Below, piece after piece: positions 18,629 to 46,300 of a DNA stretch of 49,229 nucleotides. This DNA is from Oligosphaeraceae bacterium (GTDB taxonomy: Bacteria; Verrucomicrobiota; Lentisphaeria; Oligosphaerales; Oligosphaeraceae): NCBI GenBank assembly GCA_012799725.1, contig JAAZKR010000074.1:1-49229 (forward strand), given 5' to 3'. The notes under the pieces are model-generated. The model saw only the letters and a program-made list of their open reading frames with translations, ran no database searches and had not been told where the DNA came from. The position numbers were made by a program, and so were the translations under genes. The first letter of the stretch is position 1. The number at the start of each line of letters is the position of its first letter.

Positions 18629-18674
18629 ATCAGTTTTTCTCCATCAGCTTCCCATTCATAAAAGGGTAGGAAAC

Positions 18675-22075: not shown

Positions 22076-23392
22076 TTGCCAACATCACTGATCATGAATC
22101 AATTAACAAATTGCCCAATAGAATCCAACGGTGATTTTGATGTCCTGGTATGCGGTGCCGGAATGGGAGGCATTACAGCTGCCTGTATGGCGGCAGAGCA
22201 AGGGCTTGAGGTCTGCGTTTTGGAATATTTTGGCGAACCTGGCGGTATTCCTGTCAATGGTGCCCTGGGGGCCATCTCAGGTTTTTCCGATGGAGAAGTC
22301 GTTGCGGTAGCTGGTTTTCCGCAGCGATTTGCGGATGAACTGGAACGTCGCGGCGCAAGTCTGATTCAAGGTGGCGGCAGTAATATCAATCTTCCTCCTT
22401 CTGCCATTTCCCTGCTCGTTTGGGAACTGCTGGAGTTCTACAACATTCAGATGCGCTTGTATACATCTGTGATTGACACGGAAGTCGATGCAAATGGACG
22501 TATTTCTTCCGTAGTAACCAGTGCAAAGGAAGGCTTGCGGCGTGTTTCCGCCAAACTGTTTATCGATGCCACCGGAGATGGTGACCTTGCATATATGGCA
22601 GGGGCGCCATACGAAATAGGGCGCCCTTCTGATGGCAAAGTCATGAGTGCCAGCGTTATCTTCATTATAGGCGGAATTGACAAAAGCAGAATGCCTGAAT
22701 ATATGGAAGTACGGAGAATCTGGAAGTCACGCCCCCGGCCTGTCCCCATTGATCACAGTGTTTTCCAATTTGTTCCACATTCCCCGCAAAGCAACGAAAT
22801 TGCCGTAAATATGACGCATTCCCTTGATGCCGATCCTCTTATCTCTGCTGGCCTAACGAAAATCCGCAGGGATTGCATGAAACAGGCAAAATATCTGCTG
22901 GAAGAGTTTTTCAGGAAGGAAATTCCCGGTTATGAAAACGCTTGGATAAGTCGTTATGCGCCGCAGGTCGGTGTCCGGGAAAGCAGGCGTATCATGGGCG
23001 ATTACATCCTCACCGAGGAAGATGTCTTGGAAGGGCGTCGTTTTGAAGATGAAATCGCTTGCGGTATATGGGGCATTGATGTGCACAATCCGGATGGCAT
23101 TCATACGGGAGTAAGTCACTACATCACGAAACCCTATGGGATTCCTTACCGCTGCATTACGCCTAGGGGATTAAGCAACCTGTTCATCGCGGGACGGCCA
23201 ATTTCAGCGGATCATATTGCCCACTCCTCCAGCCGTATCAATGCTACATGCATGGCAATCGGCGAAGCAGCAGGCACCGCTGCGAAAGAGGCAATTGACA
23301 GGCAGTGTACCCGCATGGTGGATATTCCACAGCTGAAATCACAGCTGGCAAACAATACATACAGTTACTTCAATGTAAAAGATGAATATTGA
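22076..23392 (+). CDS. FAD-dependent oxidoreductase (PF12831-like)
   Basis: 438 aa. The N-terminal dinucleotide-binding motif is DVLVCGAGMGGITAACMAAEQG and a C-terminal IGEAAGTAA segment is present. An alternative start at ATG 22094 (MNQLTN) is equally plausible. Confidence 0.75.
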   Translation: MPTSLIMNQLTNCPIESNGDFDVLVCGAGMGGITAACMAAEQGLEVCVLEYFGEPGGIPVNGALGAISGFSDGEVVAVAGFPQRFADELERRGASLIQGGGSNINLPPSAISLLVWELLEFYNIQMRLYTSVIDTEVDANGRISSVVTSAKEGLRRVSAKLFIDATGDGDLAYMAGAPYEIGRPSDGKVMSASVIFIIGGIDKSRMPEYMEVRRIWKSRPRPVPIDHSVFQFVPHSPQSNEIAVNMTHSLDADPLISAGLTKIRRDCMKQAKYLLEEFFRKEIPGYENAWISRYAPQVGVRESRRIMGDYILTEEDVLEGRRFEDEIACGIWGIDVHNPDGIHTGVSHYITKPYGIPYRCITPRGLSNLFIAGRPISADHIAHSSSRINATCMAIGEAAGTAAKEAIDRQCTRMVDIPQLKSQLANNTYSYFNVKDEY

Positions 23393-24904: not shown

Positions 24905-27901
24905 TTAACGGATAAGAATCGACATTCCGTGAGATGGTACAGTTACCATGAATTGGCCGTCGCTCTCTGGCTTGATCACCTTCTCACTCACCATGCGTCC
25001 ATTGATGCCGTAACTGCGGCATGTAACTTGGTCGACCGGCTCATCCCATCTGAATTTGCCTGAATTGACAGTGATGATACGTTCCTTGGCGCGGATCCAT
25101 CCGGCATGAATATCCAGTATTGTGCTCGGAAACATGTCGCGCGTGGGCCATTCGTGTGGATTCTCGTGCGTTTTACGAGGCACATAGTAAGGATAATAGA
25201 GGATGCCGTTTTGGATTTTCCAGATCATGTCATCCATGAGATCCTCTTCAGTTTTCCATGTTTCGCGCCGTCCATATAGAGCTTTTCCGTGAGGGCCGTG
25301 TTGTCCCAGCATTACTGGAGTCGTAAAATGCATTTGCGCAAGGCGATCAACTCGATCACCCTCCGAAAAGCGAACGACCGGACCTTCCATTTGTTGGAGT
25401 CTTTTGATAAGAGGGGGAGAGTTAAGAATCACAATCCCATTGCGTTCAACAATATATTTATATATATTATATCTGGCGCCAGCAGACAACAAACAACAAT
25501 CGCCGTATTTCCGTATAATATTGCCCTTGTCATCGAGGTCTACTGTGTACCCATCCCAGCGGTCGTAGGTGAAACGTCCATAGTGCATGGCGGAGTTATT
25601 TGGTGTGTCGAAATACATACCGGAAAAACCGGCATCCATTGCTTTTTTTGCAACTTCCATGATATATTCGTAATAGCGATTGCCTATCATTGGATAACGG
25701 TAAACGTGGTATTGTCCAAGCTCGCCGCCTTCGTATGTGCTTTTGGGGTTTGCTCCAACACGAGCACGGGCATAAACAGGATGATTTCCGTCCTGATCTA
25801 CAATTGCTGAATCGGCCAATGGGTCGGGTTTGCCCTCACGATTCCGCCATGAAAACGTTGTTTGAAATTGCAAAAGGTATTTACAGTCTGGGACAAATTT
25901 TCTATTGTTGTTTTTCCATTCTATGAATGATTCCATCGCTTTATCAATCGTGAAATCGTCATCAGGATTTTGGGCGGCATTGAACCAGGTCCAGCCCACT
26001 GCAGAGTCAGCACCGTAATTTTTGGCGCGTATCTGGAACAATTCTCCATCGAAACTATCCCACCAGAGCATAGGTCCAGGAATAGTTGTCAAGTTTACAA
26101 GCCAAGCTCGACGTACGGCATTCACAAAGTCAAAGTAATCGGTCGAGGGGGTCATATACAGACCCCATTCAAGGATATACTTTTTCCCGGCATCAAAGCC
26201 AAGATGCGCGGTTTCGACTTTACCCATGAAAGGTGTCGCTTGATAACTGCATTGCAGTCGCAGCAGGTCGTCCTCCAGCGCCAGTCCAAGGCCGTTATCC
26301 TTGAAAGCCCAGAAAATGGACGAGTTCGCGTTAGGATTATTGTGACTGCTCAACATTTGTTGATATAAGGGCGAACCATTTTTCCGGATGTTTTCTGCCC
26401 GAGTATCTAAAAAGACATTGATCCCGGTACGCATGCCAAGGGGGGCTCCTGAAATATTCTCAATGCAATCACTCACTCGAATTGTTTGAGGATTGCATTT
26501 GACGGTACGGGTTATCTTATAAAATTTCCCCGAAAAATCAATTTTAAAGCCATCATTGGTTGTGCCAACCGTGCCTTGCCAGCTGTTTTCCGTCTTGATC
26601 TTTTCAGCCCCTGCGCAAAAAAATCCATTTGCACCACCCTCTGGATAGGAGAAGAAGCTCTCGACAAAATATTTCTGTATGCCGGTTTGTATTTGCAGAC
26701 CTCCGTCCGGCGCAATGGTAAGTGTGTAATCCTCACATTTTTTTTCTGTGCTGCTGTCAACGAATTGGCGGGTTTCTATCTGCCGAGCCGGCGAGAGAGT
26801 GGTGCAGGCATCGGGCACGTAACCGAGCTCCAGTTGATGAACCAATAGAAAAGGGTTTCCGTCTTTAAAACCTCGTCTTTTGACAAAATAGTCGTATTGT
26901 GCCAGATTGCGGAATGTCAATTTATTGTCTATATCTTTTAGAAGATCGTCACAATCAAGATAGTACCAGTTGACTTGTCGTGTCTCTGCAGAATTACTCT
27001 TGTCTGCGGGAAGTCCCCATTTGGAACCATGCATTACAGTCAGACGTCCCTGGTCATTGAGAGTTGTTGCGGCACTGCCCAGATAATTAAGGCCTCTATT
27101 GAGCAAGCGGCTTTGCCGGTCAGATGTTTCTGACGAAACCATCTGATCATTGACTATAATTTGCAAATCGGAGGCATGTCCGGACCCGCCATATGCCAAG
27201 CGGGCGCGAAAACGAATAGCCCTTTTCCAACCTGAACGTGGCGGAAAGTTTACGGCATCGATGCTTTGCTCACCGCCGCCAACTGCCAGTGCCATATTTG
27301 GATAAGAACGTATAGAGTCGAAGCTACGTTCAATCGGATTAGATAACTCGGTAACATCTTTAGTGTAGACTTTAATTTCTCCTATGTGAAGCAGAAAAGG
27401 GACGTGAGACTTTTCGTTTTTGCCTGGGGTTGGAGCGTTATTGGTAATCAGCAACTCGTTCTCGCCTTTTGTCAGGCTGTCTGTTAAATCAAGCGCATAT
27501 CTGTAAAGGGAATTATAATCTTCCGGAACGTAAATTGCTTCGATTGGTTCATCAGTAGGATATGATACGACATTCCATATTCCACCCTTGGTGTAATCCA
27601 GCCCACTACCATGAAAAGAGACAGCTTCCCGGTTGACTAGACGCATCACTTGAGAACCCGGTGGGAATATTTCATTGCCAATCACTTTTTGATTGAGTGA
27701 AATTTTCATAAACCATTCGCCGCCAATCTTCTGTGGACGCTCAAAACGTGCTGTGAATTCAACGATTGTTCGCTTCTCCAATGAGGGTTCAATTTCATTA
27801 AAACTGATACTATGGCTTTGCCCTGGCTTAAGAATGATCGCTGATGCCCAGACCTGTATTGTCGCTGCCAGCGCGTAGATAAGTAACAACCTTTTTTTCA
27901 T
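24905..27901 (-). CDS. Giant secreted protein of unknown function (two tandem beta-sandwich-like modules plus unassigned C-terminal two-thirds)
   Basis: Start chosen at ATG 27901 (MKKRLLLIYALAATIQVWA, a signal peptide) rather than 27946. An internal duplication is visible in the N-terminal 380 aa. I recognised no catalytic motif. Confidence 0.55.
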   Translation of the reverse strand: MKKRLLLIYALAATIQVWASAIILKPGQSHSISFNEIEPSLEKRTIVEFTARFERPQKIGGEWFMKISLNQKVIGNEIFPPGSQVMRLVNREAVSFHGSGLDYTKGGIWNVVSYPTDEPIEAIYVPEDYNSLYRYALDLTDSLTKGENELLITNNAPTPGKNEKSHVPFLLHIGEIKVYTKDVTELSNPIERSFDSIRSYPNMALAVGGGEQSIDAVNFPPRSGWKRAIRFRARLAYGGSGHASDLQIIVNDQMVSSETSDRQSRLLNRGLNYLGSAATTLNDQGRLTVMHGSKWGLPADKSNSAETRQVNWYYLDCDDLLKDIDNKLTFRNLAQYDYFVKRRGFKDGNPFLLVHQLELGYVPDACTTLSPARQIETRQFVDSSTEKKCEDYTLTIAPDGGLQIQTGIQKYFVESFFSYPEGGANGFFCAGAEKIKTENSWQGTVGTTNDGFKIDFSGKFYKITRTVKCNPQTIRVSDCIENISGAPLGMRTGINVFLDTRAENIRKNGSPLYQQMLSSHNNPNANSSIFWAFKDNGLGLALEDDLLRLQCSYQATPFMGKVETAHLGFDAGKKYILEWGLYMTPSTDYFDFVNAVRRAWLVNLTTIPGPMLWWDSFDGELFQIRAKNYGADSAVGWTWFNAAQNPDDDFTIDKAMESFIEWKNNNRKFVPDCKYLLQFQTTFSWRNREGKPDPLADSAIVDQDGNHPVYARARVGANPKSTYEGGELGQYHVYRYPMIGNRYYEYIMEVAKKAMDAGFSGMYFDTPNNSAMHYGRFTYDRWDGYTVDLDDKGNIIRKYGDCCLLSAGARYNIYKYIVERNGIVILNSPPLIKRLQQMEGPVVRFSEGDRVDRLAQMHFTTPVMLGQHGPHGKALYGRRETWKTEEDLMDDMIWKIQNGILYYPYYVPRKTHENPHEWPTRDMFPSTILDIHAGWIRAKERIITVNSGKFRWDEPVDQVTCRSYGINGRMVSEKVIKPESDGQFMVTVPSHGMSILIR

Positions 27902-27952
27902 GTGGAAACCCCATGATTCATTGTTCAAGTTACGGCGGATCATCAAAATCTG

Positions 27953-28696
27953 TTATTGTTTCCCCACACCTGTGATCCCGAGCACCAGAACAACATTTCC
28001 ATCTGTGGGAAGATACTTCAGTCCGAGAGTTTGTATTAGCCCCTTCGAGGTATATTTACGATATAGACCGCTTCCGACATCAGCATAATCTTGCCATTTA
28101 ACAATTGCCGCATGGCCGTCCAGAAAGGAAAAAATGAAATTGTTTCTGTGAAGGATAATGGGATGAGTTTTATCATTGCCGCTGTTATGCATTGGTGGCC
28201 ATGGTCCCCCTTGATATCCAGTGCCAGCGTAATTCAAGGTCGAAGCATCCCCGGTCAATGGATAAAATCCTGGCTTCGGTATAATTTTATCTCTCAACAC
28301 AAAAGGATAGCTACCAGAATTGATGAAGTCTCCACTCTTGAAAAAACCATAAACCTTACTTGTTCCATGCGGGCCTGAATCGTCGTTCTTGATGAACCGC
28401 CGCTGTTCCGGACAAACAAGAACATTTTTTGATATGCCTTCTGACATCAATCCTGCTTGATAGAGCGCATAGTTCCAAAACAGGGAGGAAGAATGCTGCA
28501 TCTTAACAAATCCGCCAGCATCTAGAGAATACATGAGGAGCATTTGCGCGACTTGTTTCTGATTGCTGAGGCAGGTAGCAGCACGTGCACGCGAACGCGC
28601 ATTTTGCAATGCCGGGAGCAACATTGACGCCAAAATCGCTATGATCGCAATTACTACCAGCAGCTCAATCAATGTAAAAGATTTCTTCATGTTCAT
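27953..28696 (-). CDS. DUF1559-type pseudopilin-like protein
   Basis: 247 aa. The N-terminus is M(NM)[45 protein letters not shown]. The canonical H-X9-DG motif is [13 protein letters not shown]. It lies 51 nt upstream of the giant ORF on the same strand. Confidence 0.85.
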
Positions 28697-29375: not shown

Positions 29376-30206
29376 ATGTTGTTTACAGCAAAATACCGAT
29401 ATAATGTTTCTTTACCGCATGAAAATCTATATAGGCCGGAAACCGTTTTGATTAATTCTCCGCTGCATGTGCGTTCTTGTGGGCACTATCGTACGGCAAA
29501 GGGCTGGCGGGATAGAGCGATTGCCAAGGATTTTCTGCAACTGTACTGGGGTGTAGCCGGTAGCGGTCTCTTTCGGGCGGAAGGGAGGGAATTCATTCTC
29601 AAGCCTAATACGGTATTTTTTTTCCTGCCGGGAGATGTTCATGATATCACTGCACTGGAGGATGGCTTCGAATACCAGTGGATTGCTTTCGATGGCGATA
29701 ACCTCGATAATACCATCATACAATTTAACATCAAGCACGAAGTGAGATATGCAGGTAAGGCTCCGCTGGAAATTTTTGAAGAAGCCCGTAACAATCTGTG
29801 CAACTTCTCCCGACACGGCGAGTACCTCGCCTCCGCTAACGGGTTTACTCTGCTTTCCATGGCTTTTGCCGGTGCCACTCTGCAAGGTTCGGTTTTTGAG
29901 CGGTTCCTCAGGTATATACGAAAGCATTATGCAGATTCAAGTCTGACGATAGAGGCAATTGCCAATGCCTTAAAAATCAACCGGATAACCCTGTTACGTG
30001 CTGTTATCAAGGCAAGTGGCATGTCTCCCAAAAAATATCTTGATATGTTGCGTTTGCGGGAAGCGCTCTCGTTGTTACGTGAATCAAACTTCAGCATCAA
30101 GGAGATAGCGGCCTATACAGGTTTTTCTGGCAGCAATTATTTTGCCAAATTCATCCTTAAAAAAACCGGGGAATCGCCTTCTTTTCATCGGACAAGCCGG
30201 GACTGA
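29376..30206 (+). CDS. AraC-family transcriptional regulator
   Basis: 276 aa with an AGGAG Shine-Dalgarno sequence at 29364-29368. The C-terminal HTH pair includes LTIEAIANALKINRITLLRAV and IKEIAAYTGFSGSNYFAKFILKKTGESP. Confidence 0.85.
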   Translation: MLFTAKYRYNVSLPHENLYRPETVLINSPLHVRSCGHYRTAKGWRDRAIAKDFLQLYWGVAGSGLFRAEGREFILKPNTVFFFLPGDVHDITALEDGFEYQWIAFDGDNLDNTIIQFNIKHEVRYAGKAPLEIFEEARNNLCNFSRHGEYLASANGFTLLSMAFAGATLQGSVFERFLRYIRKHYADSSLTIEAIANALKINRITLLRAVIKASGMSPKKYLDMLRLREALSLLRESNFSIKEIAAYTGFSGSNYFAKFILKKTGESPSFHRTSRD

Positions 30207-30260: not shown

Positions 30261-31592
30261 TTATTGGATGTGCCGGCTTTTCATTGCTTGTTTGGCTGCG
30301 CCGGATGCCGCTTCTTCGGGCATTTGCGAAATCTGAAGCGGCAGGCCGAATTCCTGCTCGATGGCGAACTGTATGCTTTTCACCAGTCGCACTGCATTTC
30401 CGGAGCCAATGACCACTTTTCTTGTGCGCAGCAAATCAACCGGGAATGGGCGCATCAGATTACGAACGATTCCGACAGCCAGAGCAGCGGCAAGTTTTCC
30501 GGGTGTAGTATTGTTTAATGTCAATCCGCACACTGTGCCACGCAACGCGGAGTCGTGACGTTCGCCGAGAAAATGTGGCAACACCACAAGTTCTGTTTTT
30601 TCTGTCTGAAGTTCCTCGAGTGCAAGTTCATCTAAACGATCCAGCAACTCATGCCTAGGCAATTCCGCATCGCCCAGATCACGCCGAAAGTTGTTGATCG
30701 TGTCAGCCAGCCAGGCAAAAGCTGAGCCGCCGCAGAGCGGTGCGGACACCAGAAGAAAGCGTCCACCGGGAAATGGGCGGATTTCCAGCTCCGCCGGGAT
30801 ATTTGCCGGCATGGAGTCAACAACTGCTGAAAGTTGCGCTCCTGTGCCGAGAGTCAGATACAATTCCTGTTTGACATCGCATCCAGTACCGAGTACCGAT
30901 GCCTGATTGTCACCGATCGCATTGACCACTGGAATCCCCGCCGCAAGGCCGTATTTCGTGCTTGCTTCTGCTGACATCCGCCCGGCTACGGAACCGGAGG
31001 CGCGGATGGATGGCAGGATGGCATTCGGGATGGACAGTTTTGCCAGCGCGTCAAAGGCCCAGTCGTTCCGGGTATAATCATAGATACCCCAGCTTGCCGC
31101 GTGAGTGGGGTCCGTCAGTATGACATTATTGCCGGTCAGTTCCGCAACCAACATATCACTGATCGTTGCGGCTTGCATGGTATCATCAAGCCGTCCTTCT
31201 GCGGCCAGCCTTGCCAAGGTCAAGCCGCCGAAGCCCTCGTGGAGTGACAATCCTGAAACACGGTTGAACTCGCTGATCATCTCTTGGCCGCAACGGCAAT
31301 CCTGCCACGTGACCAGTGGCGACAATCCCTTTTTGCCACGGATCATAAGCGAGTGCATTTGTCCGGTAATGCCTACTGCGCCGACCTCCTGACGAACCTG
31401 TTGCGGAAGTTCCTCGAGCAAATTCCGGACACAATCGAATATCTTTCCGGCATCCTGTTCGGCGGCGCCGGGCACTGCCGTTTCGAGTTTGCCATGGTGT
31501 ACTCGGCTGACAACTTTCTCTACCGTTCCAGCTTCGTTGATAACCACCACCGCAACTTTTGTTGTGCCTAAGTCGATTCCAATCGTTTTCAT
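30261..31592 (-). CDS. FGGY-family carbohydrate kinase (sedoheptulokinase/xylulokinase-like)
   Basis: 443 aa. The N-terminal actin-fold phosphate-1 motif is MKTIGIDLGTTKVAVVV. The motifs GITGQMHS and LTLGTGAQL and a C-terminal VIGSGNA segment are present. The start lies 3 nt after the activase stop. Confidence 0.8.
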   Translation of the reverse strand: MKTIGIDLGTTKVAVVVINEAGTVEKVVSRVHHGKLETAVPGAAEQDAGKIFDCVRNLLEELPQQVRQEVGAVGITGQMHSLMIRGKKGLSPLVTWQDCRCGQEMISEFNRVSGLSLHEGFGGLTLARLAAEGRLDDTMQAATISDMLVAELTGNNVILTDPTHAASWGIYDYTRNDWAFDALAKLSIPNAILPSIRASGSVAGRMSAEASTKYGLAAGIPVVNAIGDNQASVLGTGCDVKQELYLTLGTGAQLSAVVDSMPANIPAELEIRPFPGGRFLLVSAPLCGGSAFAWLADTINNFRRDLGDAELPRHELLDRLDELALEELQTEKTELVVLPHFLGERHDSALRGTVCGLTLNNTTPGKLAAALAVGIVRNLMRPFPVDLLRTRKVVIGSGNAVRLVKSIQFAIEQEFGLPLQISQMPEEAASGAAKQAMKSRHIQ

Positions 31593-31595
31593 TTT

Positions 31596-32366
31596 TCACC
31601 CAAAACAGACAGCATTGATATGATCTTTGCGCAAACGCACAACAAATTGTTCCAGGTTTTCACGCGGCGGCGGTTGGACATCGCGGCAGGCCGACTCTCG
31701 TCCCAGCGCCATATATTTGGGCTCGGCAAGGTGATGTTGCCGCAATAGTTCCACATGAAGTTCTTCTTGCGGCCTGAGTGAGAGCAGTTCGAGCAGAAAT
31801 TCGTGCAGCTTCTGTTGCGCCGGGAGATCGTCGTTAAGCCCCGAAACAACCGGAATCCGCACTGTGAAAGAAGGCTGATGCTGGGCTGCGAAACGCAGAT
31901 TATCTTTGCAAAGCTCCAGTAAAGCGACATTCGGTGAAACGCGTTGCCTGAAACGCTCCAGCTCAAGGGTCTTCAGATCGGCATAGAGAAAATCGACCAT
32001 CATTGCCGCGTCGCGGAAACCGGGAGTAGATGCGTTGCTCTCCATGGCAGTATGGATTTTGGCCTCCCGCAACAATCGGAGCGCCTCGAGCAATTCCGCG
32101 ATCTGCAAGGTTGGTTCTCCGCCGCCGAAAGTCACTCCATTGATGAAAGAGCGCGCTTTCCGGGCCTTGCGGACAATTTCCCCGACGGTGATTTCATGCC
32201 CCACCGTTATGGTGCGTTCCGGGTAGCGGAGAATTTCCGGCTGCGGCGAGATGCTTTCCGGCGCTCCACACCAGTCGCAACGAAAATTACACCCTTTGAG
32301 ATAAAAAATAAGCCGGGTGCCGGGGCCATCATAATTATCACTATAGCCGGAATCAAAAATGATCAT
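31596..32366 (-). CDS. Glycyl-radical enzyme activating protein (radical SAM, short PflA-like form)
   Basis: The ORF track extends to 32549, but that start overlaps the regulator gene. The ATG at 32366 overlaps the regulator stop (ATGA). The product MIIFDSGYSDNYDGPGTRLIFYLKGCNFRCDWCGAPE carries the CX3CX2C cluster motif and the SAM-binding segment FGGGEPTLQ. There is no second Cys-rich ferredoxin-like insert. Confidence 0.85.
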   Translation of the reverse strand: MIIFDSGYSDNYDGPGTRLIFYLKGCNFRCDWCGAPESISPQPEILRYPERTITVGHEITVGEIVRKARKARSFINGVTFGGGEPTLQIAELLEALRLLREAKIHTAMESNASTPGFRDAAMMVDFLYADLKTLELERFRQRVSPNVALLELCKDNLRFAAQHQPSFTVRIPVVSGLNDDLPAQQKLHEFLLELLSLRPQEELHVELLRQHHLAEPKYMALGRESACRDVQPPPRENLEQFVVRLRKDHINAVCFG

Positions 32367-33313
32367 GCAAAGGGGTCCTGTGCCAGAAAACGATATTGCC
32401 GCGCTTTCCAGTTCTCCCCCAAACGGCGTTGATCGCCCAGGGATTTGAAGCATCCTTTTGCCAATTCGTCCATAGGCTGACGGTAGCTGATGATTCCTTT
32501 CGCTCTGCTCTCCGGGAGTCCATCGATACTGAAAACCGGAACCCCACACTCTGCGAACATCAGTGCGGTTGGATCATTGACTGCGAAAATAGCACTGTGT
32601 TCGGGGAAAATTTCGGGCAGTTCAGTTGAAAAATCAATGCCGTGCGCGGCACATTCCTTGCGGCAGCATTGCAGCCGTTCATGGTTGCTGTCAATATCCA
32701 ATCCCGTTGGATCGACAAAGTAAACTCTGCGAATCCCGCGCTCTTTGGCTTTTTCAAAAAGTGCGCGCATGGCGCCGGCATTGTCTAAACAGACATAATC
32801 GGCAATTTTGCCTGGGTTGATCCGGTCAAAAAAGACCATATTGACCCCGAGAATGCGCAACCGGAAAAACAATTCGAGATCCAGTGTCCGGTCAATTCCC
32901 CAGACCACCATGTCACGGATGCCATGCAAAGCCAGCCGAATGACTGCTTCATTCTGCTGTTGCCCGGAACTGCCCGGTTCCAGCACGGTGATCACATCGC
33001 GTTTGGCGGCCTCATTGCAGAGCGTGCTCAAAAAACTGCGGACAAAATGATCCTCGATCGGCAATATCGCAGCGATCTTGGAGATTTTGCCTTCTGACGC
33101 AGCTAATTTTGTATTGACGATGCTGCCAACTTTCTGCTTGCGCAGGATGGCGTGATTGTCCACCAGTTTGGCGAAGGCGCGCCTGATCGTAGTGCGGCTG
33201 GCGCCAAACCGTTGCATGGCCTCATTTTCAGTCAGAAATCTCTGACCCGGCAAAAAACGTCCTTTGAGGATATCCTTAAACAAAGACTGGTAAATTTTTT
33301 CCGTAAGTTGCAT
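32363..33313 (-). CDS. AraR-like chimeric regulator (GntR-type winged HTH + LacI/periplasmic-binding-protein-like sugar-binding domain)
   Basis: Start chosen at ATG 33313 (MQLTEKIYQSLFKDILKGRFLPGQRFLTENEAMQRFGASRTTIRRAFAKLV, a GntR HTH), which avoids overlap with the GRE gene. The C-terminal roughly 240 aa have a Peripla_BP-like alternating beta-alpha pattern. Confidence 0.8.
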   Translation of the reverse strand: MQLTEKIYQSLFKDILKGRFLPGQRFLTENEAMQRFGASRTTIRRAFAKLVDNHAILRKQKVGSIVNTKLAASEGKISKIAAILPIEDHFVRSFLSTLCNEAAKRDVITVLEPGSSGQQQNEAVIRLALHGIRDMVVWGIDRTLDLELFFRLRILGVNMVFFDRINPGKIADYVCLDNAGAMRALFEKAKERGIRRVYFVDPTGLDIDSNHERLQCCRKECAAHGIDFSTELPEIFPEHSAIFAVNDPTALMFAECGVPVFSIDGLPESRAKGIISYRQPMDELAKGCFKSLGDQRRLGENWKARQYRFLAQDPFA

Positions 33314-33335
33314 ATAACGATGACATTTTTCAGGA

Positions 33336-35663
33336 TCAGCTCGCTCGCTCGTCGGCATCCAGCCTGGCAATAATGTCGTTCTGGATGGCGGGTGACAAAT
33401 CCAGAAAATTGACAAACGTGCCGTGGATACGCATGATGTAAATACCCCCGGGAGCGTATTTCTTGGGATTTTCCAACACCTTGCGTAAATTCACTTTGGA
33501 ATCGATATTAAAATAAACGTAGAATGGGGTATTGTCCAACTCCTCTTTGTAGCCAAAAAGCGGCTTGATGATTTTTTCGGTGAAAATCACCATTTTTTCA
33601 TCGGTATTTTTGCCATTGCGGAAGACTTGCGGGGAGATTCCCAGATGTGCGGCATAGCCACCAAGAAAGTCGCTGTAATCAAGTTTTCTTTCACTCAAAA
33701 GCATATCTATCCTGCCGCCCATGGCATTTTCAGGTCTTGGGTCGATGCCGTAGCCGAGCATTTCACGCGCGGCTCTGCCGTCTGGCGTGGCGCCGACATG
33801 GTATCCATACAACAGATGAGTGCTTGGCGTCGAGAAGTCCGGCAGGAACGGGTTTCCGGCTGGATTGCGCAATGCATGCACTTTGGCGCTGGTCATTCTG
33901 GCGATTCGGACCGCCACGGAATCCGGTTCATCGAGGTCATTGCCGTATTTTGGCTGTTTTTTCAGGTATTCTCGCAAGTCTGCTGCTCCGGCGAAATTCT
34001 TTTGCAGAGCATCAAGCAGTTCTGCTGCGAACCCCTTCCGTTCTGCCATGCCATGCTTGACGGCGACGAGAGAATCTGCAACCACGCTCAAGCCGTGAAT
34101 CAAGCAGCCGCTGGCATGGTAGGTCACGCCGGGGTGTTTTACATCCCGCATGTCGCGTCCGGTTTTCAGTCCTTCCATCAATGCGGAAGTGAAAGGAACC
34201 GGCATAAGGGCAATCGCTTCTGTACAACCGTTCGCCGCCTTTTCCATTTTTACAAGAATCTTATCCAGCTGCTTAAAGAATGCCGTTTCCAGATCAGCGA
34301 GCAGCTCATCCAGTCCGGCATAGCCAAGTTCAGCATAGCCGCAGGCAAGTTTCGCTCCGGAGAGCAGGGAGCGTCCGTCGTTGATGGTCAGCTCGAGTAC
34401 CTTGGCAAGGTTGAGCCAGCTGTTGGTAGTATTGGCGCTTTCGCGTCCCATAATAAGCGGTTCTTGGCAGCCGGCAATGGAGTAATCCGGCCAATCTGCT
34501 TCAGCAATCTTTTTGCGTTCGAGCACCCGGAAGACCATGTCGTCATTAAAGAATGACGGCGTGGAATGTCCGGGCGTGAAGAAGAAACGTCCCATTGCCT
34601 GATAGAGGGTCTCTGGCGTATTGCGGTGTAGTTTGACCGATAGCGCCGGCTGAGGATTGTTGGACAGGAAGAACGCATCCAGCACAATGTAGGTCATCTC
34701 TGTGGTCAGATCATTGCCGGCGACATCGCGTCCGCCGACCATAATATTCTGCGAGATCGCCCAGCAACGTTCTCCAACCATCAGAAAGGCCAGAAAGGCG
34801 CGCACAAGCTGCACTGCTTCATCATGGCTGGTATCCAACAAATAGGGCTGCAAGATGCGGTCCAGGTTCCCGACTGAAAAAGCATAGGGGTTTGGTGCCT
34901 GTTCCAAAGTCATTGCCTGCCAGAGCAATGCGGCGCTTTGTACGGCTTCATGCAAATTCGTTGCTCCATGGGAGGGGACGCGGCGGCAGCTTTTGACGAT
35001 CTGAGCAAGCCGAAAAACTTCTTCAGGTTGATCGGCGCGTTCCTTCATGAGCTGCTCGGCGAGGTCTGCATAGCGCATAGCCAGAATTTCTGCGGCGGCA
35101 AGCGCTGCATGGATATGAGCGGCTTCAGGAATGAATTTCTGACCTTTGATGCCATCCTTCAGGATTGGGCGCAAATCGGGAATCGTGTGCCCGGTGACCG
35201 GCTCAACAAAAAAGGCGACTTCTTCAGTCAGCTTGCCGGTTTCGGCATAGACTTTCTGCAACGCCTTGACATAGGGGGTGTTTTTATAATAACTGCGGAC
35301 TTTCTCGATGCGTTGCTGCGGAAAAGTATCATCCGGCGTAAGGTCATCATAGATGGCAACCGGATCACAGTAGCCGGCGAAAGTTTCAACCCTGAATGCC
35401 GGGTTAATCAGTGCATAGCTGGGACTGAAAGCGTCATCCTGAGTCCCGGCAATCACACTGCCGGGTGGAATCGACAAGCGCATACGCTCGATACAACGAC
35501 AAAGAATCGCCGCTTGCACTTCCTCTGCATCAGGATCAGCAAACTCCTGACGCACATGCATCTTAATCTCCTGAAATTCAAACCACCCGGTCATCCGTTG
35601 CTGTGAAAATTTGTACTCGAGCAACTGTTGAATACCCTTGGAAAAAATATCGCTTCTATCCAT
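33336..35663 (-). CDS. Glycyl radical enzyme, PFL2/eliminase-like, substrate unknown
   Basis: 775 aa from ATG 35663, which is preceded by AAAGGGG. The ORF-track start at 35693 is a TTG. GRE blocks are present: FSVGNLDRILQPYL, NIMVGGRDVAGNDLTTEMTY, PALSVKLHRNTP, FFNDD, the Cys loop YSIAGCQEPLIMG, GATPDGR, and the C-terminal glycine loop IMRIHGTFVNF. Confidence 0.9.
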   Translation of the reverse strand: MDRSDIFSKGIQQLLEYKFSQQRMTGWFEFQEIKMHVRQEFADPDAEEVQAAILCRCIERMRLSIPPGSVIAGTQDDAFSPSYALINPAFRVETFAGYCDPVAIYDDLTPDDTFPQQRIEKVRSYYKNTPYVKALQKVYAETGKLTEEVAFFVEPVTGHTIPDLRPILKDGIKGQKFIPEAAHIHAALAAAEILAMRYADLAEQLMKERADQPEEVFRLAQIVKSCRRVPSHGATNLHEAVQSAALLWQAMTLEQAPNPYAFSVGNLDRILQPYLLDTSHDEAVQLVRAFLAFLMVGERCWAISQNIMVGGRDVAGNDLTTEMTYIVLDAFFLSNNPQPALSVKLHRNTPETLYQAMGRFFFTPGHSTPSFFNDDMVFRVLERKKIAEADWPDYSIAGCQEPLIMGRESANTTNSWLNLAKVLELTINDGRSLLSGAKLACGYAELGYAGLDELLADLETAFFKQLDKILVKMEKAANGCTEAIALMPVPFTSALMEGLKTGRDMRDVKHPGVTYHASGCLIHGLSVVADSLVAVKHGMAERKGFAAELLDALQKNFAGAADLREYLKKQPKYGNDLDEPDSVAVRIARMTSAKVHALRNPAGNPFLPDFSTPSTHLLYGYHVGATPDGRAAREMLGYGIDPRPENAMGGRIDMLLSERKLDYSDFLGGYAAHLGISPQVFRNGKNTDEKMVIFTEKIIKPLFGYKEELDNTPFYVYFNIDSKVNLRKVLENPKKYAPGGIYIMRIHGTFVNFLDLSPAIQNDIIARLDADERAS

Positions 35664-35786
35664 CTTAAACCCCTTTTTGCAGCTAGTATCCAAAATATTT
35701 CAAAACCGGCCCTTGCATCTTTTAATTGTCATATTATACTATACCATAAGACAAATAAAAAGCAAGGGGCAAATCAGAGATAAATC
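35664..35786. promoter_or_regulatory. Divergent promoter/operator region between the GRE operon and the PMI-GH2 operon
   Basis: This is a 123-nt AT-rich spacer between divergently oriented starts. A 7-bp inverted repeat, cccttgc (35710-35716) and gcaaggg (35762-35768), flanks an AT-rich core. No experimentally known operator was recognised. Confidence 0.4.
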
Positions 35787-36875
35787 ATGTCCGGAGCGGT
35801 GAAATTTTTACCAAATCGGGTCTGGCGGGTCTACCGTGGCGGCAGCGGTATTGACCGGTTGCGTTCGGCTACATTTGCAGCTGATGGGCACTTTCCTGAG
35901 GATTGGATTGCGTCAACCACTCCTGCCAACAATCCGCAATATGAATCTGCGGATCAAGGTTTCAGCCGCATTGCATCTTCTGACGGCGCCATGCTTTTCC
36001 GTGATTATCTTGAGTCGGCTCCCGAATATGCTCTTGGTGCAGCTCACCATCGCCAGTTCGGCTGCAATCCGGCTTTTCTGATGAAAATCCTTGATTCTGC
36101 TGAACGTCTGCCGATTCAAGTGCATCCGACTTTGCCGGATGCACGACGCTTTTTCAACAGTGATTTTGGGAAAACCGAGGCATGGTATGTTGTTGCCACC
36201 CGTACAGTTAATGGAGAGGAGCCATGCCTGTTTATGGGGTTCAATGAAGAGTTGGACGAGCAGCTTTTCCGGCGCGAGGCGCTGAGCGGGAATTTCTCTG
36301 AAGGGAGTAATATGCTGCACAGGCTTAACGTGCGTCCGGGCGACTGTTATCTTGTTCCTGGCGGGCTGCCGCATGCCATCGGGAGCGGAGTTACTCTTAT
36401 CGAAATCATGGAACCGAGCGACTTGGTCGTTCAACCGGAACGATACTGTGGAAAGCAGCCTTTGTCAGATGCTGAACGCTGGAGCAACGCAGAACCCGAA
36501 GATGCCTTATGCTGCTTTGATTACAAAGCCGAGACTGAAGCGGAGGTGAGAAAACGCTGCACACCGCCGATCAAAAAGCTGGATGATTCCCTTTCAATTA
36601 TCATTCCCAGAGAAAGCGCCCAATATTTCGAGGTCCAGAAACTCGTCTGCAATGGCAATTACCATCTTGTCAATCGCGAAAAATGTCACCGGGCCGGTGT
36701 TGTCGTTTCCGGTGCTCTGACATTGAAAGACTGCCGTGGCGGCGAACTTGAACTGAACTGCGGAGATGCATTTTTTCTGCCATTCGCAATGCCAGAATGC
36801 GAATTTACCGGAACCGGTGAAGTGATCTTCGCCCTGCCGCCTGCTCTCAAAGAAACAGCGCCGCCTTTACCATAA
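35787..36875 (+). CDS. manA: Class I mannose-6-phosphate isomerase (cupin)
   Basis: 362 aa. The zinc/active-site blocks of type I PMI are present: LPIQVHPTLPDA, GKTEAWYVV and VPGGLPHAIGSGVTLIEIMEPSD. Confidence 0.8.
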   Translation: MSGAVKFLPNRVWRVYRGGSGIDRLRSATFAADGHFPEDWIASTTPANNPQYESADQGFSRIASSDGAMLFRDYLESAPEYALGAAHHRQFGCNPAFLMKILDSAERLPIQVHPTLPDARRFFNSDFGKTEAWYVVATRTVNGEEPCLFMGFNEELDEQLFRREALSGNFSEGSNMLHRLNVRPGDCYLVPGGLPHAIGSGVTLIEIMEPSDLVVQPERYCGKQPLSDAERWSNAEPEDALCCFDYKAETEAEVRKRCTPPIKKLDDSLSIIIPRESAQYFEVQKLVCNGNYHLVNREKCHRAGVVVSGALTLKDCRGGELELNCGDAFFLPFAMPECEFTGTGEVIFALPPALKETAPPLP

Positions 36876-42097: not shown

Positions 42098-42820
42098 ATG
42101 CGCAAACTCTTTACTTTAATTGAACTGCTCGTCGTCATCGCAATCATAGCCATACTTGCATCGCTTTTGCTACCAGCTTTGCAATCTGCCCGCGAACGTG
42201 CCCGGATGATATCTTGTGCCAGCAACCTAAAGCAGCTGGTGCTGGCTGAAACCTTGTATGCCGGCGATTTTAATGACTATAGAACGCCCATGCCGAAAAA
42301 CGACAGCTTTGTAATTGGACCACTGACTGAAACGGGTTCTTATAACATGGGAAAACTTTACGTTTTGGGCTATTGTTTCACGCCCAAATCTTTCTATTGC
42401 CCCAGTTTGAAGTTTAATGTAGTCAGCGGTACACGTACGGATCACACAGCTTGGTCTCTGGGAACTATTACCACAACCTATATCGGCTATTATTCGGCCT
42501 CATTTAAACAACATGCAGACTGGGATTATACAACGACGACTTTCAAACTATACGGGCCTTTTCCTAAGTTCGTCGACGGCAGCAACAAATCTGCCAAAAG
42601 TGCATCTGCCATGCCACTTATGCTTGACTTTCATAATAAGCAAGGTTGTGTAGTCGCTGTCCCACACCGTCTGAAGCTCAATGTTGGTTTCTGTGATGGC
42701 TCCGTTGATACCTTCAACGATATAAAACGTGAGATTTTCCTTCCTACAGGCGTGGGACATTATTCCAACTCTTACAAGGCTCCGGATGTCATCATGCAGA
42801 GCCGTGGTGCGGCCGAATAA
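42098..42820 (+). CDS. DUF1559-type pseudopilin-like protein
   Basis: 240 aa. The N-terminus is [46 protein letters not shown]. The H-X9-DG motif is [13 protein letters not shown]. Confidence 0.85.
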
Positions 42821-42910
42821 AATAATCTTGGCGTAGTATGACCGTCCACAAACCATTTTTTGTCCACGGAAAGCACGGAAAACTTGGCGTGGGCTAATGC
42901 CAACAACCCA

Positions 42911-43016
42911 CACGGACGGGGCACGGACTTTACACGGACGGGGCACGGACTTTACACGGACTTTACACGGACGGGAAACGGACTTTACACGGACTTTACA
43001 CGGACTTTACACGGAC
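42911..43016 (+). repeat. CACGGAC-word tandem array (units CACGGACTTTA and CACGGACGGGG)
   Basis: cacggacggggcacggactttacacggacggggcacggactttacacggactttacacggacgggaaacggactttacacggactttacacggactttacacggac. It is preceded at 42866-42883 by cacggaaagcacggaaaac. It generates the spurious ORF TDFTRTGHGLYTDFTRT. Confidence 0.85.
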
Positions 43017-43080
43017 AGCTGATCGGTCGGATTGGTCGGATCGGCACGATGCTTTGCGCCGTAGGCGCTTAACTATGCTT

Positions 43081-43148
43081 AACCCCAGGCTTCAGCCTGG
43101 GGTGAGGAACCCACCCAAAGACAGTGCCTTGTAAAGGCACTACAATCA
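43081..43148 (+). repeat. Hairpin-containing dispersed element, copy 1 (possible small structured RNA or REP-like element)
   Basis: One hairpin is ccccaggc-ttca-gcctgggg (43083-43102). A second is agtgcct-tgtaa-aggcact (43123-43141). The 3' half, gacagtgccttgtaaaggcact, recurs at 47685-47706. Confidence 0.5.
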
Positions 43149-43317
43149 GATGGAGAAATGCTTATATGCCAATGACTTGGAGCTTTCTTCTCAGAAAAAT
43201 CTGTCCAAAAAAAGAAGATTTTGGGCGATAGTAGTGCAGGGAAATTTGTAGGTTTGTTGCTTTGCCGCATGGACCTTCTCTGGCAAAATCCTTTGACTAG
43301 GTGAAAAAAGGAGTTTT

Positions 43318-46300
43318 ATGATGCGATTTCAGTATTGCCTCGCAGCTGTTCTGTTGTGCTCAGAAATATTGCTTGGAGCTGCCGTGCTTTCCTCAAACAC
43401 AGGGAAATATATTTTTAACGAACAAAACGGCGCATTACAGTCGATAGAAGATGCCCGCAACGGCAGGAAAACTGTGTCGGTGCACAATTCCTATCTGGTA
43501 CAACGCAAATCCGGGGACCTTCAAGCGGATGAAAAGAACGATTCCGTAACGGGAAAAAGCACTGTCGGAAACTCCATCACCTATGTCTGTAACAATCCTG
43601 ATTTGCCGGATTTTGAAATCCGCAAACGATATTGGATTGCCGATGGTTTATTAAGACGAGAACTCACGCTCCTGAATCGGTCATCTGAAAAAGCCTATTT
43701 TTTCCCCTTTTCCGAAAGCATCTTTTCGCCTGAATTCAAAGAAAAAGCCTATTATTTCGGTGCCGGTTACCTTGGTCCTTTCAAACCTGCCGCCGTTGTT
43801 GACATTCCCACGCCTGTTAATGAATATGTGCAAACTTCCAAAGGCATGGTGCTGATCAATGCTAGTAACGAGCTTGGCAGTTATGCTCATTACCGTGTCA
43901 AGATCAATGATACGATTGTCTATCCATGGTGGCAAAGTGCGATTAGTAGATACCGGGAAAAAGAAGACAGACTCTATTATATGCCCAATGGTTGGAAAAT
44001 GTGCCTGGGCGGACTCGATATCGAGCCGAATGACGGATCAATCCGTCTGACCGACGCTTTCAGCTTTTTCCATGGCAGCCTGTATGATTTTTTTACCGGA
44101 GTGTATGGTTCGGATACCGAGATCACCAGCGAACTTGCGGCAATTCAGCCGGTTCCTGAAGTCATGGCCGATATCGTTGCTATGGTCACGCAGGGCTCCA
44201 ACGACTCAATGAGATATCTTGGCGAAATGCTTGATGAGGGAATATTTCTTTACAACACCGGCCTTATGGCTTCTTGGTTTGATTATCGCATGGATGGTAC
44301 AATGGTTGGCTGGCAGGGGGGAGAGATCACCGCAGACGACCTCGCGCATTTTTTCCGCAGTATCCGCGATATGATCCCTGGAAGAGTGATGACCAGCCAT
44401 TACACTGTCCCCATCGCCGCAACATTGCCTGCCCCTATATTCAAAGAACGTCCTGAATGGTTCCGTGTCTATGACCGCGAGGGCCGTGAGGACAGTCTTT
44501 TCCCAGGCATGAGTAAAAACTTTCAGGCGATGCTCAATAAACCGCAAGCCCGCAAATTCTTTATCGATGGGGTCATCAGTCAAGCGGAGAAACTCGGCAA
44601 CAAAGCTATATATGTCGATGAAGCGCAACAGTATAATGTTATCAATTGGCAAACCGGTGAAATGATGCGGGATGATCATACGGTGGAACTTTGGCGGGAA
44701 CTGAGAACACGCGCCAGGGAAAAAAATCTGATTTTCACAATGAACGGTTCTGGGCAGCCATTCGGTGATTTTAGCTATATGGAAAATTGGGTTCTGCTGT
44801 CGCCGCCAAAATGGCGCGAATATGCAGGAGTCGCCTTGGGGTTGGAATTGTTCAGTATGCTGCGTCCGGGAGCTAGGATCAGTCCACTTTATTGGCATAT
44901 TCTCCGGGAGAATGACTATACCAACCGTTTGCTGGCACTCGGCTGGATACCAACGCTTGGTTATGCGGCAGACAATTATCCGCTTGCTCCGGTGCGTGCT
45001 GCCTATGAGGCTGGGGATGCCAATCCTATCCCCCTTGCATTTACACCAAACTGGATGGAAGACCCCAGGACTGATATTGAATCCTATGCCATACAACGCA
45101 TCGGTGGCAAAGACACATTATTAAGTTTCATTAATCGGGGACCCAAACAGGATATTGCCATCCAGCTTGACCTTGCTACGCTGCCACACGATCACGATGC
45201 TCGGATCAATATCTGGCGAATGCCAGTTTGGCGTTTTGCTCAGGAAACTCCGGTTCATGAGTGTAAAACAGGGGATCGATTCTTCTTATCTAACCGGGAA
45301 TACCGGGATAATTACCAAAAATACGGTTGGCTGGGTGGCTTCGTCGGGGCGCCTCAACTGGTCTATAGTGGCAATGCACAAGGTACCTTCAAGGATACAG
45401 CGCGTATGATTGATGAGAACCACATGGTGCAATATATCATCACAGCAGGGCCGATGGCCATTTATACAGTCAACAACCTCGGAGCAAACTACTTCTTTAC
45501 GCATAACCGGAAAGTCTCGATCGACGGCAGGAAAATAATGAACGAGGCTGAAAAACTGGAAATTATGCTGGCCGACCTGGATTATGAGTTTACTGACATT
45601 ACCGTCAACGGCAAGGCGGACATCCCTGTCAAAACTATCGATATTGGCGGAGTGGCTATGCAATGCATTACGGTGGGTACAGGAGAAAACACCGTTTCGT
45701 ACCGCCCCATAGCACGGCGAAAAAATACTGACAAAGCGGCTTTACAGGCCAACTACAATCCTGCTAAAAATCAAATCGAGGTCAGCAACGCCGATCAGGG
45801 TGAACTCTATGCGTTGACTCTGCGTGGAGCCACGCTTTACTGTGGTACTGCACCAATACCTGTTCCGCCGCAACATGAGGGCGGTATCTATCAGATGCGA
45901 CGAATCGGAGATATCGAAACGGTAAATATCACCCTTCCAGATGGGGAGTTGACCGAAGTTGCCAAACTCTACAATACCGTCTTTCACCCTGAAAAAAGAC
46001 AAATCCGAACCGTTCATACCGAAAAGGACGGTGTTGTTGTCACCAAGGCAGCATCCTATGTCAGCTCTTGGGAAGACGCCTATGAACTTCAGCGTACCCA
46101 ACCTGTTTCGATTGTTGAGGCCGATGAAAAAAGCCTGTTCTTGCGTGCAAATACTACGCCACGGGAGCGAGTCAGTTATGTCAAGCATTACACACGCAAC
46201 TTCGCAGGATTTGAGATGAATGGCGCCAGACAGATTCGTATCCGGTTCCGCAGTAATTTCGGACAGGTACAGTCACTTTCAACGGGACATATCACTTATA

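Follow-up and report, generated by a model that had tools for sequence, protein, structure and literature searches.

Organization of the operon

The window analyzed here is a 49,229-nucleotide stretch of DNA from an Oligosphaeraceae bacterium (contig JAAZKR010000074.1), and the system under study is a minus-strand operon that encodes a glycyl radical enzyme (GRE), a regulator, a radical S-adenosylmethionine (SAM) enzyme, and an FGGY carbohydrate kinase. A cupin gene is transcribed divergently from this operon. The features of the locus, including the four GRE codons whose positions were checked, are as follows.

33336-35663, minus strand: GRE, 775 residues, ATG start behind AAAGGGG; PF02901, 308 bits
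35187-35189, minus strand: codon of GRE His159
34467-34469, minus strand: codon of GRE Cys399
34461-34463, minus strand: codon of GRE Glu401
33420-33422, minus strand: codon of GRE Gly748
32363-33313, minus strand: GntR-type helix-turn-helix regulator, AraR-like, with a sugar-binding-protein-like C-terminal half; PF00392
31596-32366, minus strand: GRE-activating radical-SAM enzyme (activase), short form of 256 residues; PF04055 and PF13353; motif CNFRCDWC
30261-31592, minus strand: FGGY carbohydrate kinase, 443 residues, sedoheptulokinase/xylulokinase-like subfamily; PF00370 and PF02782
35664-35786: divergent control region between the GRE and cupin genes, 123 nt, read from the sequence
35787-36875, plus strand: cupin resembling mannose-6-phosphate isomerase (PMI), 362 residues; PF21621, 29 bits; divergent from the GRE gene

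A first-pass annotation of the window had described the four minus-strand genes as closely packed, and both the coordinates and the domains are borne out. The GRE stop codon is separated from the regulator gene by 22 nt, the TGA of the regulator and the ATG of the activase overlap as ATGA, and the spacing between the activase and the FGGY kinase is 3 nt. A longer, 785-residue open reading frame (ORF) version of the GRE begins at TTG, and in that numbering Cys399 and Glu401 are Cys409 and Glu411. The control region contains an imperfect palindrome, TGTCATATTATACTATACCATAAGACA, at approximately 35729-35755, which was read from the sequence and was unreported by the repeat finder; the GntR-type regulator of the operon may use it as its operator. 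There is no match to the sigma-70 consensus in 35664-35786, and promoter and terminator scans gave nothing useful there. As judged from its genes, the locus is an intact GRE system composed of the enzyme, a dedicated radical-SAM activase, and a predicted sugar-responsive repressor.

The glycyl radical enzyme and its clade

The PF02901 match to the GRE covers residues 27-620. The Gly_radical domain (PF01228) gives no match at E <= 0.001, and it is also missing from the precomputed Pfam domains of 120 listed homologues. An AlphaFold2 model of the GRE, built on 48 homologues, has a predicted local distance difference test (pLDDT) value of 85.7 and a predicted template modeling (TM) score of 0.89, in agreement with the ten-stranded barrel of PFL-like enzymes. 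Foldseek comparison of this model gives TM scores of 0.77-0.81 to more than 40 GRE structures at 18-24% identity, including propanediol dehydratase, glycerol dehydratase (GD), HypD, CutC, PflD, and YbiW. All of the eliminase/isomerase GREs superpose on the model about equally, and no characterized class is specifically close.

The catalytic Cys loop reads AGC399-Q-E401-P, and Cys399 aligns with the catalytic Cys of YbiW, PflD, PflB, and GD. This Cys is invariant in the 48 aligned homologues, and GCQE is found in all 81 family members from the fetched loci. The first-pass annotation had assigned the G-C-Q-E loop to the eliminating type of GRE, which agrees with the description of the CxE motif as defining the GRE eliminase/isomerase classes (PMC13450708). 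The loop predicts eliminase/isomerase-type chemistry for this enzyme. Gly748 aligns with the radical Gly of GD, propanediol dehydratase, YbiW, PflD, and PflB, and is located within the invariant YIMRIHGTFVNFLDL segment, which breaks the RVxG[FWY] fingerprint (R-I-H-G-T). The residues around Gly748 are non-canonical, with a His before it and a Thr after it in place of the aromatic residue, and the loop RIHGTFVNF is exact in 79 of the 81 members.

In the multiple alignment, the His of VTGH159 aligns with the corresponding His of YbiW and PflD. We take this residue to be equivalent to the general acid His164 of GD; the printed GD alignment begins downstream of that site. In the GD alignment, with positions counted by hand, GD residues H281, S282, Y339, D447, and Y640 correspond to Y260, A261, S304, T413, and S611 in the GRE. 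These GD side chains are presumably the ones that contact glycerol, and if so, their replacement (including two Tyr by Ser) would be indicative of a larger polar pocket and not that of a diol dehydratase. Two more Cys residues, Cys99 and Cys520, are invariant in the family, and the Cys520 column is also occupied by Cys in Escherichia coli PflB. Two family-invariant segments, residues 84-97 (~35373-35414) and 617-637 (~33753-33815), are predicted with pLDDT below 50. The first, ALINPAF.VE.F.GYCDP, is a family-specific insertion that contains the invariant Cys99, and the second reads LLYGY.VGATPDGR. Based on the model, both may be mobile or interface elements.

The relationship of the GRE to characterized classes was probed using NCBIfam equivalog models, sequence and fold comparison with PDB entries, and a rough neighbor-joining (NJ) tree. 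The equivalog scores are below the cut-offs for the TIGR01774 subfamily (233 bits, cut-off 678), HypD (175 bits, cut-off 1100), HpsG (170 bits, cut-off 1000), HpfG (168 bits, cut-off 1000), PflD (153 bits, cut-off 1109), CutC (133 bits, cut-off 1050), and pyruvate formate-lyase (PFL; TIGR01255, 74 bits, cut-off 994). No IslA or glycerol/propanediol dehydratase equivalog model was matched in the NCBIfam scan, and these classes were compared through PDB entries only, at 18-24% identity. The best solved relatives are 9RCO, a GRM3 1,2-propanediol dehydratase (PMC12756279), and the Clostridium butyricum GD, both at ~24% identity. Based on scores, motifs, and identities, membership in the bona fide PFL, glycerol/propanediol dehydratase, CutC, HypD, HpsG/HpfG/IslA, and PflD/YbiW groups was rejected. 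Membership among the aminoacyl radical enzymes (AAREs) was also rejected, as Gly748 is kept at the aligned position. The three approaches agree with the earlier proposal that this GRE stands outside the characterized classes, and its sequence places it in a deep, uncharacterized clade.

Homologues at 53-77% identity were found by a word-indexed search in metagenome-assembled genomes of Victivallaceae, Planctomycetota, and Kiritimatiellae. They match PF02901 only and carry the public names 'pyruvate formate lyase family protein' and 'formate C-acetyltransferase'. A metagenome scan located 540 contig stretches that encode a relative. The family is delimited by a sharp drop in score in an exhaustive search of representatives: family members score 687-809 bits, sister clades score 240-440 bits at 32-39% identity, and the general GRE background lies below these, at ~30% identity and no more than 220 bits. 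In the rough NJ tree the family and its sister clades group together, apart from YbiW and PflD. One full-length homologue at 34% identity, P0133, has lost the catalytic Cys (loop VVGDELP), and its Gly loop is degenerate (LLRVPGAII); its sequence suggests that it is probably a non-radical paralogue of the clade.

Conserved neighborhood and partner proteins

To describe the genomic context of the family, 88 related loci (given L numbers here) were gathered, and the 35 with at least 3 kb on both sides were counted as well flanked. Neighbor counts are from a tblastn recount made after an ORF-clustering pass, which avoids ORF-calling errors. A scan of genome contigs with a single-protein query gave 3 loci; an alignment query would reach further. 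The activase is present in 35/35 well-flanked loci, and an FGGY kinase is found within 5 kb of the GRE gene in 30/35, on the same strand in 29. The PMI-like cupin lies within 5 kb in 19/35, and a GntR-type regulator is present in approximately 19/35, a count somewhat inflated by overlapping ORF calls. The cassette is spread across Victivallales, Planctomycetota, Kiritimatiellae, Armatimonadota, and many metagenome lineages. A planctomycete-like 1-Mb contig (L098) has the exact layout of the window, with a divergent cupin gene followed by GRE, GntR, activase, and FGGY genes; in other lineages the cupin gene is co-directional. The neighborhood is thus conserved beyond this genome, the first-pass annotation having named its absence from relatives as grounds for withdrawal.

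A Pfam census of 82 co-directional neighbor genes revealed no recurrent shell protein or transporter. As the census shows no other recurrent enzyme, the GRE, the activase, and the kinase form a self-contained unit, often accompanied by a regulator and an isomerase. The accessory genes usual for characterized GREs had been reported missing from the window, and indeed no microcompartment shell, aldehyde dehydrogenase, or small subunit gene is nearby. The literature that could be searched contained nothing on this GRE family or on the pairing of a GRE with an FGGY kinase.

The link between the GRE and sugar genes suggested in the first-pass annotation is therefore conserved; its mannoside context is specific to the window. 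None of the 88 related loci contains a counterpart of the GH2 pair, CBM9 was not found, and the flanking glycosidases vary by locus (GH32 with a ROK regulator and MFS transporter, GH172 with GH116, GH38/57-like, or none). The regulators of the cassette are of the sugar type, namely GntR with a periplasmic-binding-protein domain, ROK, DeoR, and AraC. The genes for sugar isomerization differ among loci. In L006 and L007 the cupin is absent and an AraA-like protein is encoded between the GRE and the kinase, and in L061, also without cupin, the kinase gene is followed by genes for D-lyxose isomerase (LyxI), a mutarotase, and a PfkB kinase. In L003, genes for phosphofructokinase (PFK) and PfkB come after the cassette.

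The best NCBIfam model for the window kinase is XylB (TIGR01312), at 141 bits against a cut-off of 380, and kinases of the window family always match this model best, at 105-158 bits. The FucK model scores lower than XylB, RhaB models are unmatched, and kinase homologues are named 'sedoheptulokinase' in several sources. E. coli XylB phosphorylates 1-deoxy-D-xylulose, xylitol, and D-arabitol. The genome that carries L004, a GRE locus without a kinase gene, encodes a 42%-identical kinase paralogue elsewhere (L097:5642-10332), after an SDR, a Gfo/Idh/MocA oxidoreductase, and a Zn-dependent alcohol dehydrogenase, with a LacI regulator. This layout is that expected of a route from polyol to ketose to kinase, as read from the gene families, and this kinase set may provide an oxidative route parallel to the GRE-linked one.

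The divergent cupin had been called a class I mannose-6-phosphate isomerase in the first-pass annotation. The divergent orientation and the likeness to PMI stand, as the protein matches Bacillus subtilis PMI 1QWR (E = 5.8e-13) and keeps the metal-ligand motifs QVHP, GKTEAWY, and HA. The specific class I assignment is uncertain, with TIGR00218 at 64 bits against a cut-off of 116. Based on these motifs, the cupin is a probable metal-dependent aldose-ketose isomerase. The activase, whose CNFRCDWC motif is of the CX3CX2C type, scores 135 bits with TIGR02494 (cut-off 174). Alignment reveals that the Cys-rich insert is absent from the window activase and from that of its closest relative (L001:12273-13118), as in E. 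coli PflA, whereas other activases of the family have a ~45-residue insert with 4 Cys, and YbiY and PflC carry Cys-rich inserts at the same position. The auxiliary cluster thus appears dispensable in the lineage of the window activase. The regulator has a weak TreR-like match over residues 110-230, and Peripla_BP domains are present in its homologues from L004, L097, and L098.

Several further observations concern the surroundings of the cassette. In L008 (3731-13338) two GRE systems stand back to back, one canonical (704 residues, matched by PF01228, with a ferredoxin-rich activase) and one a family cassette in the order FGGY-activase-GRE-GntR. A gene of the ADP-ribosylglycohydrolase family follows the GRE gene in 6 related sediment loci. 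Genes of the URO-D family (PF01208, methyltransferase/decarboxylase-like) lie within ~6 kb of the GRE gene in at least 5 lineages of the family and sister clade, and the window itself has none. An AraC-family regulator gene at 29376-30206 (plus strand) is convergent with the kinase gene, and its homologues (cluster c9) lie beside the cassette in L011, L016, and L017; this regulator may belong to the locus in Victivallales.

Beyond the operon, the first-pass annotation had placed two GH2 beta-mannosidase-like genes and a giant CBM9-bearing protein in the window. The GH2 assignment holds, and the mannosidase label rests on weak Ig_mannosidase and Ig_GlcNase matches. The giant protein (43318-47301, 1327 residues) has no Pfam match even at E <= 1. 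Three modules, at 17894-21893, 24905-28696, and 42098-47301, each pair a pseudopilin-like gene (N_methyl/DUF1559) with a 1000-1330-residue protein that has no Pfam match, and this repeated arrangement resembles a secretion or surface-enzyme unit of a kind that is typical for Lentisphaerae and Planctomycetes. The remaining features are listed below; as a whole, the window is a dense carbohydrate-utilization region.

16279-17853: GH63/mannosylglycerate-hydrolase-like gene
22076-23392: FAD-dependent oxidoreductase, PF12831
23413-24810: GH4 glycosidase
L092:1309-2433, L093:2368-3495, L098:2506-3522, L011:12076-13092, L063:17183-18112, and the P0295 locus (related loci): URO-D-family genes, PF01208

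Proposed function and relation to known enzymes

With the gene structure, fold, catalytic motifs, clade separation, and gene partnership established, we infer the reaction type, the substrate class, and the logic of the pairing. The best available reading of the GRE, and a reasonable one, is that it would cleave a C-O bond of a sugar, polyol, or anhydro-sugar by a radical route. More specifically, it is tentatively proposed, at somewhat less than an even chance, that the kinase and the GRE together convert an alditol- or anhydroalditol-like carbohydrate to a deoxy-carbonyl sugar phosphate. Radical chemistry is normally kept for substrates that have no activating carbonyl, and the alditol/anhydro-alditol model is the most economical because such chemistry suits carbonyl-free substrates and because YbiW and PflD offer a precedent.

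In the proposed mechanism, the activase would install a radical on Gly748, which would give rise to a thiyl radical on Cys399. A sugar-sized substrate would then lose a hydrogen atom from one of its carbinol carbons to the Cys399 thiyl radical, and Glu401 would deprotonate the hydroxyl of that carbinol. Next, the neighboring C-O substituent (a hydroxyl, ring, or ether oxygen) would leave with the assistance of His159. Finally, return of the hydrogen atom would yield the deoxy-carbonyl product. The FGGY kinase, paired with the GRE, would phosphorylate the terminal CH2OH group, such that a substrate without a free carbonyl (an alditol or anhydro-alditol) would give the omega-phosphate of a 1-deoxy-ketose or 2-deoxy-aldose. 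The steps could run in either order, kinase then GRE or GRE then kinase; XylB takes both 1-deoxy-xylulose and pentitols. Housekeeping aldolases could split the resulting deoxy-sugar phosphate. Bacteria of the Planctomycetota-Verrucomicrobiota-Chlamydiota (PVC) group are generally without sugar phosphotransferase systems (PTS). The pathway would be a kinase-based, redox-neutral counterpart of the 'radical glycolysis' of E. coli YbiW and PflD, suited to PVC-type anaerobes, with the kinase standing in for the PTS in these largely PTS-free bacteria.

Several findings weigh against this proposal. The Gly loop departs from the canonical fingerprint, and the glycyl radical is predicted from sequence. 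No homologues of FsaA, FsaB, FrwC (PTS EIIC), or a YbiV-type phosphatase are encoded in 89 loci (E < 1e-5). The Pfam census of neighbors contains no recurrent aldolase or dehydrogenase, and the cassette has no linked aldolase for the next step. Furthermore, three unrelated types of aldose-ketose isomerase accompany the cassette (PMI-like cupin, D-lyxose isomerase, and AraA-like), and these cannot act on a 1-deoxy-ketose or 2-deoxy-aldose, so the model gives them no role. Together with the L097 layout, the isomerases suggest that the kinase substrate is an ordinary ketose (xylulose, fructose- or sedoheptulose-type), in which case the place of the GRE in the pathway becomes unclear. Considerable weight is therefore left with alternatives in which the GRE would carry out another, perhaps unprecedented, reaction on a locked or substituted sugar. 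A broader formulation takes in the clade together with its sisters and assumes an unprecedented GRE reaction alongside a terminal-carbon kinase, for example dehydration of an alditol phosphate, or cleavage or epimerization of a locked sugar or heptose; it is viewed as possible but doubtful.

The isomerases could be accommodated by an ordinary aldose cassette (aldose to ketose by the isomerase, ketose to ketose phosphate by the kinase), where the GRE would catalyze a new type of reaction on the ketose phosphate or on a compound that precedes it. It might, for example, epimerize or rearrange a heptose or hexose derivative through radical chemistry at one of its unactivated carbons, leading to sedoheptulose-7-phosphate, xylulose-5-phosphate, or fructose-6-phosphate. 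Two of the three non-homologous isomerase types are of the manno/lyxo type, the kinase family goes by the name sedoheptulokinase, and the kinase of the sister clade is a genuine XylB. The LyxI, mutarotase, and PfkB genes after the L061 cassette and the PFK and PfkB genes after the L003 cassette fit this scheme, as might the extra invariant Cys99 and Cys520, although Cys520 is not special to the family, given the Cys of E. coli PflB in the same column. We know of no GRE that acts as an epimerase or mutase on sugars, however, and conversions of this kind are normally carried out by non-radical enzymes. The conserved Glu401/His159 acid-base pair suits elimination, and many loci, including those of the sister clade, are without any isomerase. 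The scheme is considered unlikely.

The freed sugar could instead be what the kinase and isomerase process, if the GRE were a radical lyase with a substituted or locked sugar as its substrate. Such an enzyme would cleave a glycoside, ether, or O-methyl group, or a C-S or C-N bond in a sulfo-sugar (for example, a sulfoquinovose derivative) or an amino-sugar. CxE GREs are described as cleaving C-N and C-S bonds in addition to C-O bonds (PMC13450708). Sulfatase genes flank the GRE gene in L004 and L092, and the URO-D-family genes (at least 5 lineages) and the ADP-ribosylglycohydrolase-family gene (6 loci) could be read in the same way. The LyxI, mutarotase, and PfkB genes of L061 also resemble what we take to be the isomerase, mutarotase, and kinase set of the sulfo-Embden-Meyerhof-Parnas pathway. 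However, each of these neighbors occurs in a minority of loci only, no conserved sulfite reductase or exporter, amine-handling gene, or corrinoid protein emerged from the 82-neighbor Pfam census, and the HpsG, HpfG, and CutC scores are far under the cut-offs. A lyase of this type is judged quite improbable.

Less probable still is a divergent 1,2-propanediol/glycerol dehydratase in the lactaldehyde/propanediol branch of fucose or rhamnose fermentation, with the isomerase and FGGY kinase serving as fucose/rhamnose isomerase and fuculo-/rhamnulokinase. The best sequence and fold matches of the GRE are the dehydratases 9RCO/9RCP and the C. butyricum GD, FucK and RhaB are FGGY kinases, and L006/L007 encode an AraA/FucI-like isomerase. 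The hosts are presumably fucoidan- and rhamnose-degrading PVC bacteria. Nevertheless, the identity is only 23-24%, every other eliminase is about as close, and the aligned diol-contact positions are changed (H281Y, S282A, Y339S, D447T, Y640S). None of the related loci shows a class II aldolase, lactaldehyde reductase, aldehyde dehydrogenase, or shell gene, and the kinase scores lower with FucK than with XylB and leaves the RhaB models unmatched. Finally, the PFL identity given in public annotation, for which the source names and the PF02901 match speak, is effectively refuted by the motif and score tests, as the loop has a single Cys (AGCQE) and not the PFL Cys-Cys pair, the TIGR01255 score is 74 bits against 994, the identity to E. 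coli PflB is 22%, and there is no formate channel gene among the flanking genes of the window or the neighbors in related loci.

Other reactions were considered separately. A 6-phosphogluconate- or mannonate-type dehydration is unsupported, as non-radical enzymes suffice for it, and phosphate elimination, salvage of 1-deoxyxylulose 5-phosphate, and a 5-deoxyribose shunt were weighed and are likewise unsupported.

What is new at this locus is a widespread GRE clade with a conserved FGGY kinase partner; the fold, catalytic residues, and activase partnership are of a known GRE kind. GRE functions have been assigned clade by clade, and with each assignment an anaerobic flux that had been overlooked came to light, as for choline, hydroxyproline, isethionate, and 1,5-anhydroglucitol. 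The present clade is large and extends over several phyla of glycan-degrading anaerobes, including Victivallales of the human gut. The RIHGTFVNF loop escapes Pfam and PROSITE-type glycyl-radical signatures, so motif-based GRE surveys probably miss these proteins, and public annotation labels them 'pyruvate formate lyase'. The GRE-kinase pairing is a testable two-enzyme unit, and the short activase, free of a ferredoxin-like insert, may prove easier to handle than most eliminase activases. If the proposed chemistry is correct, redox-neutral radical dehydration of alditol phosphates to deoxy-sugar phosphates would offer strict fermenters a 'dehydrative' alternative to polyol dehydrogenases. If locked sugars or heptoses are cleaved or epimerized instead, the products would feed sedoheptulose-7-phosphate or xylulose-5-phosphate. 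In either case, a widespread and previously unseen anaerobic carbohydrate pathway would operate in PVC bacteria of guts and sediments.

Among known systems, the preferred alditol/anhydro-alditol model is most similar to YbiW and PflD. These enzymes are C-O lyases/isomerases that use CxE chemistry to open 1,5-anhydro-hexitol 6-phosphates (1,5-anhydroglucitol-6-phosphate and 1,5-anhydromannitol-6-phosphate) to 1-deoxyfructose-6-phosphate, in a route called 'anhydroglycolysis' (PMC13450708). Like them, the window GRE has a PFL-like fold, one catalytic Cys within its CxE loop, and a His that aligns with theirs in the 'GH' motif. It also has its own activase and a sugar-catabolic setting, and the proposed window pathway would likewise phosphorylate the terminal carbon ahead of the radical step or close to it. 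In contrast, the identity is 22-24%, the clades are separate in the rough NJ tree, the Cys loop is CQE in place of CIE or CVE, and the Gly loop is RIHGT in place of RVAGY. The window has an FGGY kinase where YbiW and PflD have a PTS, with no FSA aldolase or GldA nearby, and its activase lacks the ferredoxin-like insert present in the YbiW and PflD activases.

The B12-independent glycerol dehydratase 1R8W and the propanediol dehydratases 9RCO-9RCR and 5I2G are the best matches (E = 1.8e-56, 2.9e-55; TM 0.81) and share the CxE loop. The His general acid also appears to be kept in the window GRE as His159. They differ in the 23-24% identity, in the replaced contact positions, and in the absence of microcompartment or aldehyde-processing genes at the window locus. 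The AAREs, whose functions are unknown, are likewise PFL-like, with a C-terminal fingerprint that departs from RVxG[FWY] (Fu et al. 2024, PMC11528403). They replace the radical Gly by Ala, Ser, or Thr (PMC11528403), whereas the window GRE keeps the glycine and only its neighbors differ.

The uncharacterized sister GCQE/RVHG clades (P0131, P0132, P0136, P0141, P0296) are 31-39% identical to the window GRE and share with the family the N-terminal GWF..E.IK, NPYAFS, SQN, AGCQEP, and STPSTH signatures. Their Gly loops, RVHGM or RVHGY, are near canonical and are matched by PF01228, unlike RIHGT, and their activases have full ferredoxin-type inserts. In the sister clade at 39% identity (GCQE, RVHGM), GRE, activase, and FGGY genes stand among housekeeping genes in 3 loci, apparently of one lineage, and the sister-clade kinase passes the XylB equivalog (539 bits, cut-off 380). 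With isomerase and regulator absent from the sister loci of the P0131 lineage, the GRE-activase-FGGY layout there is the same pairing as in the window.

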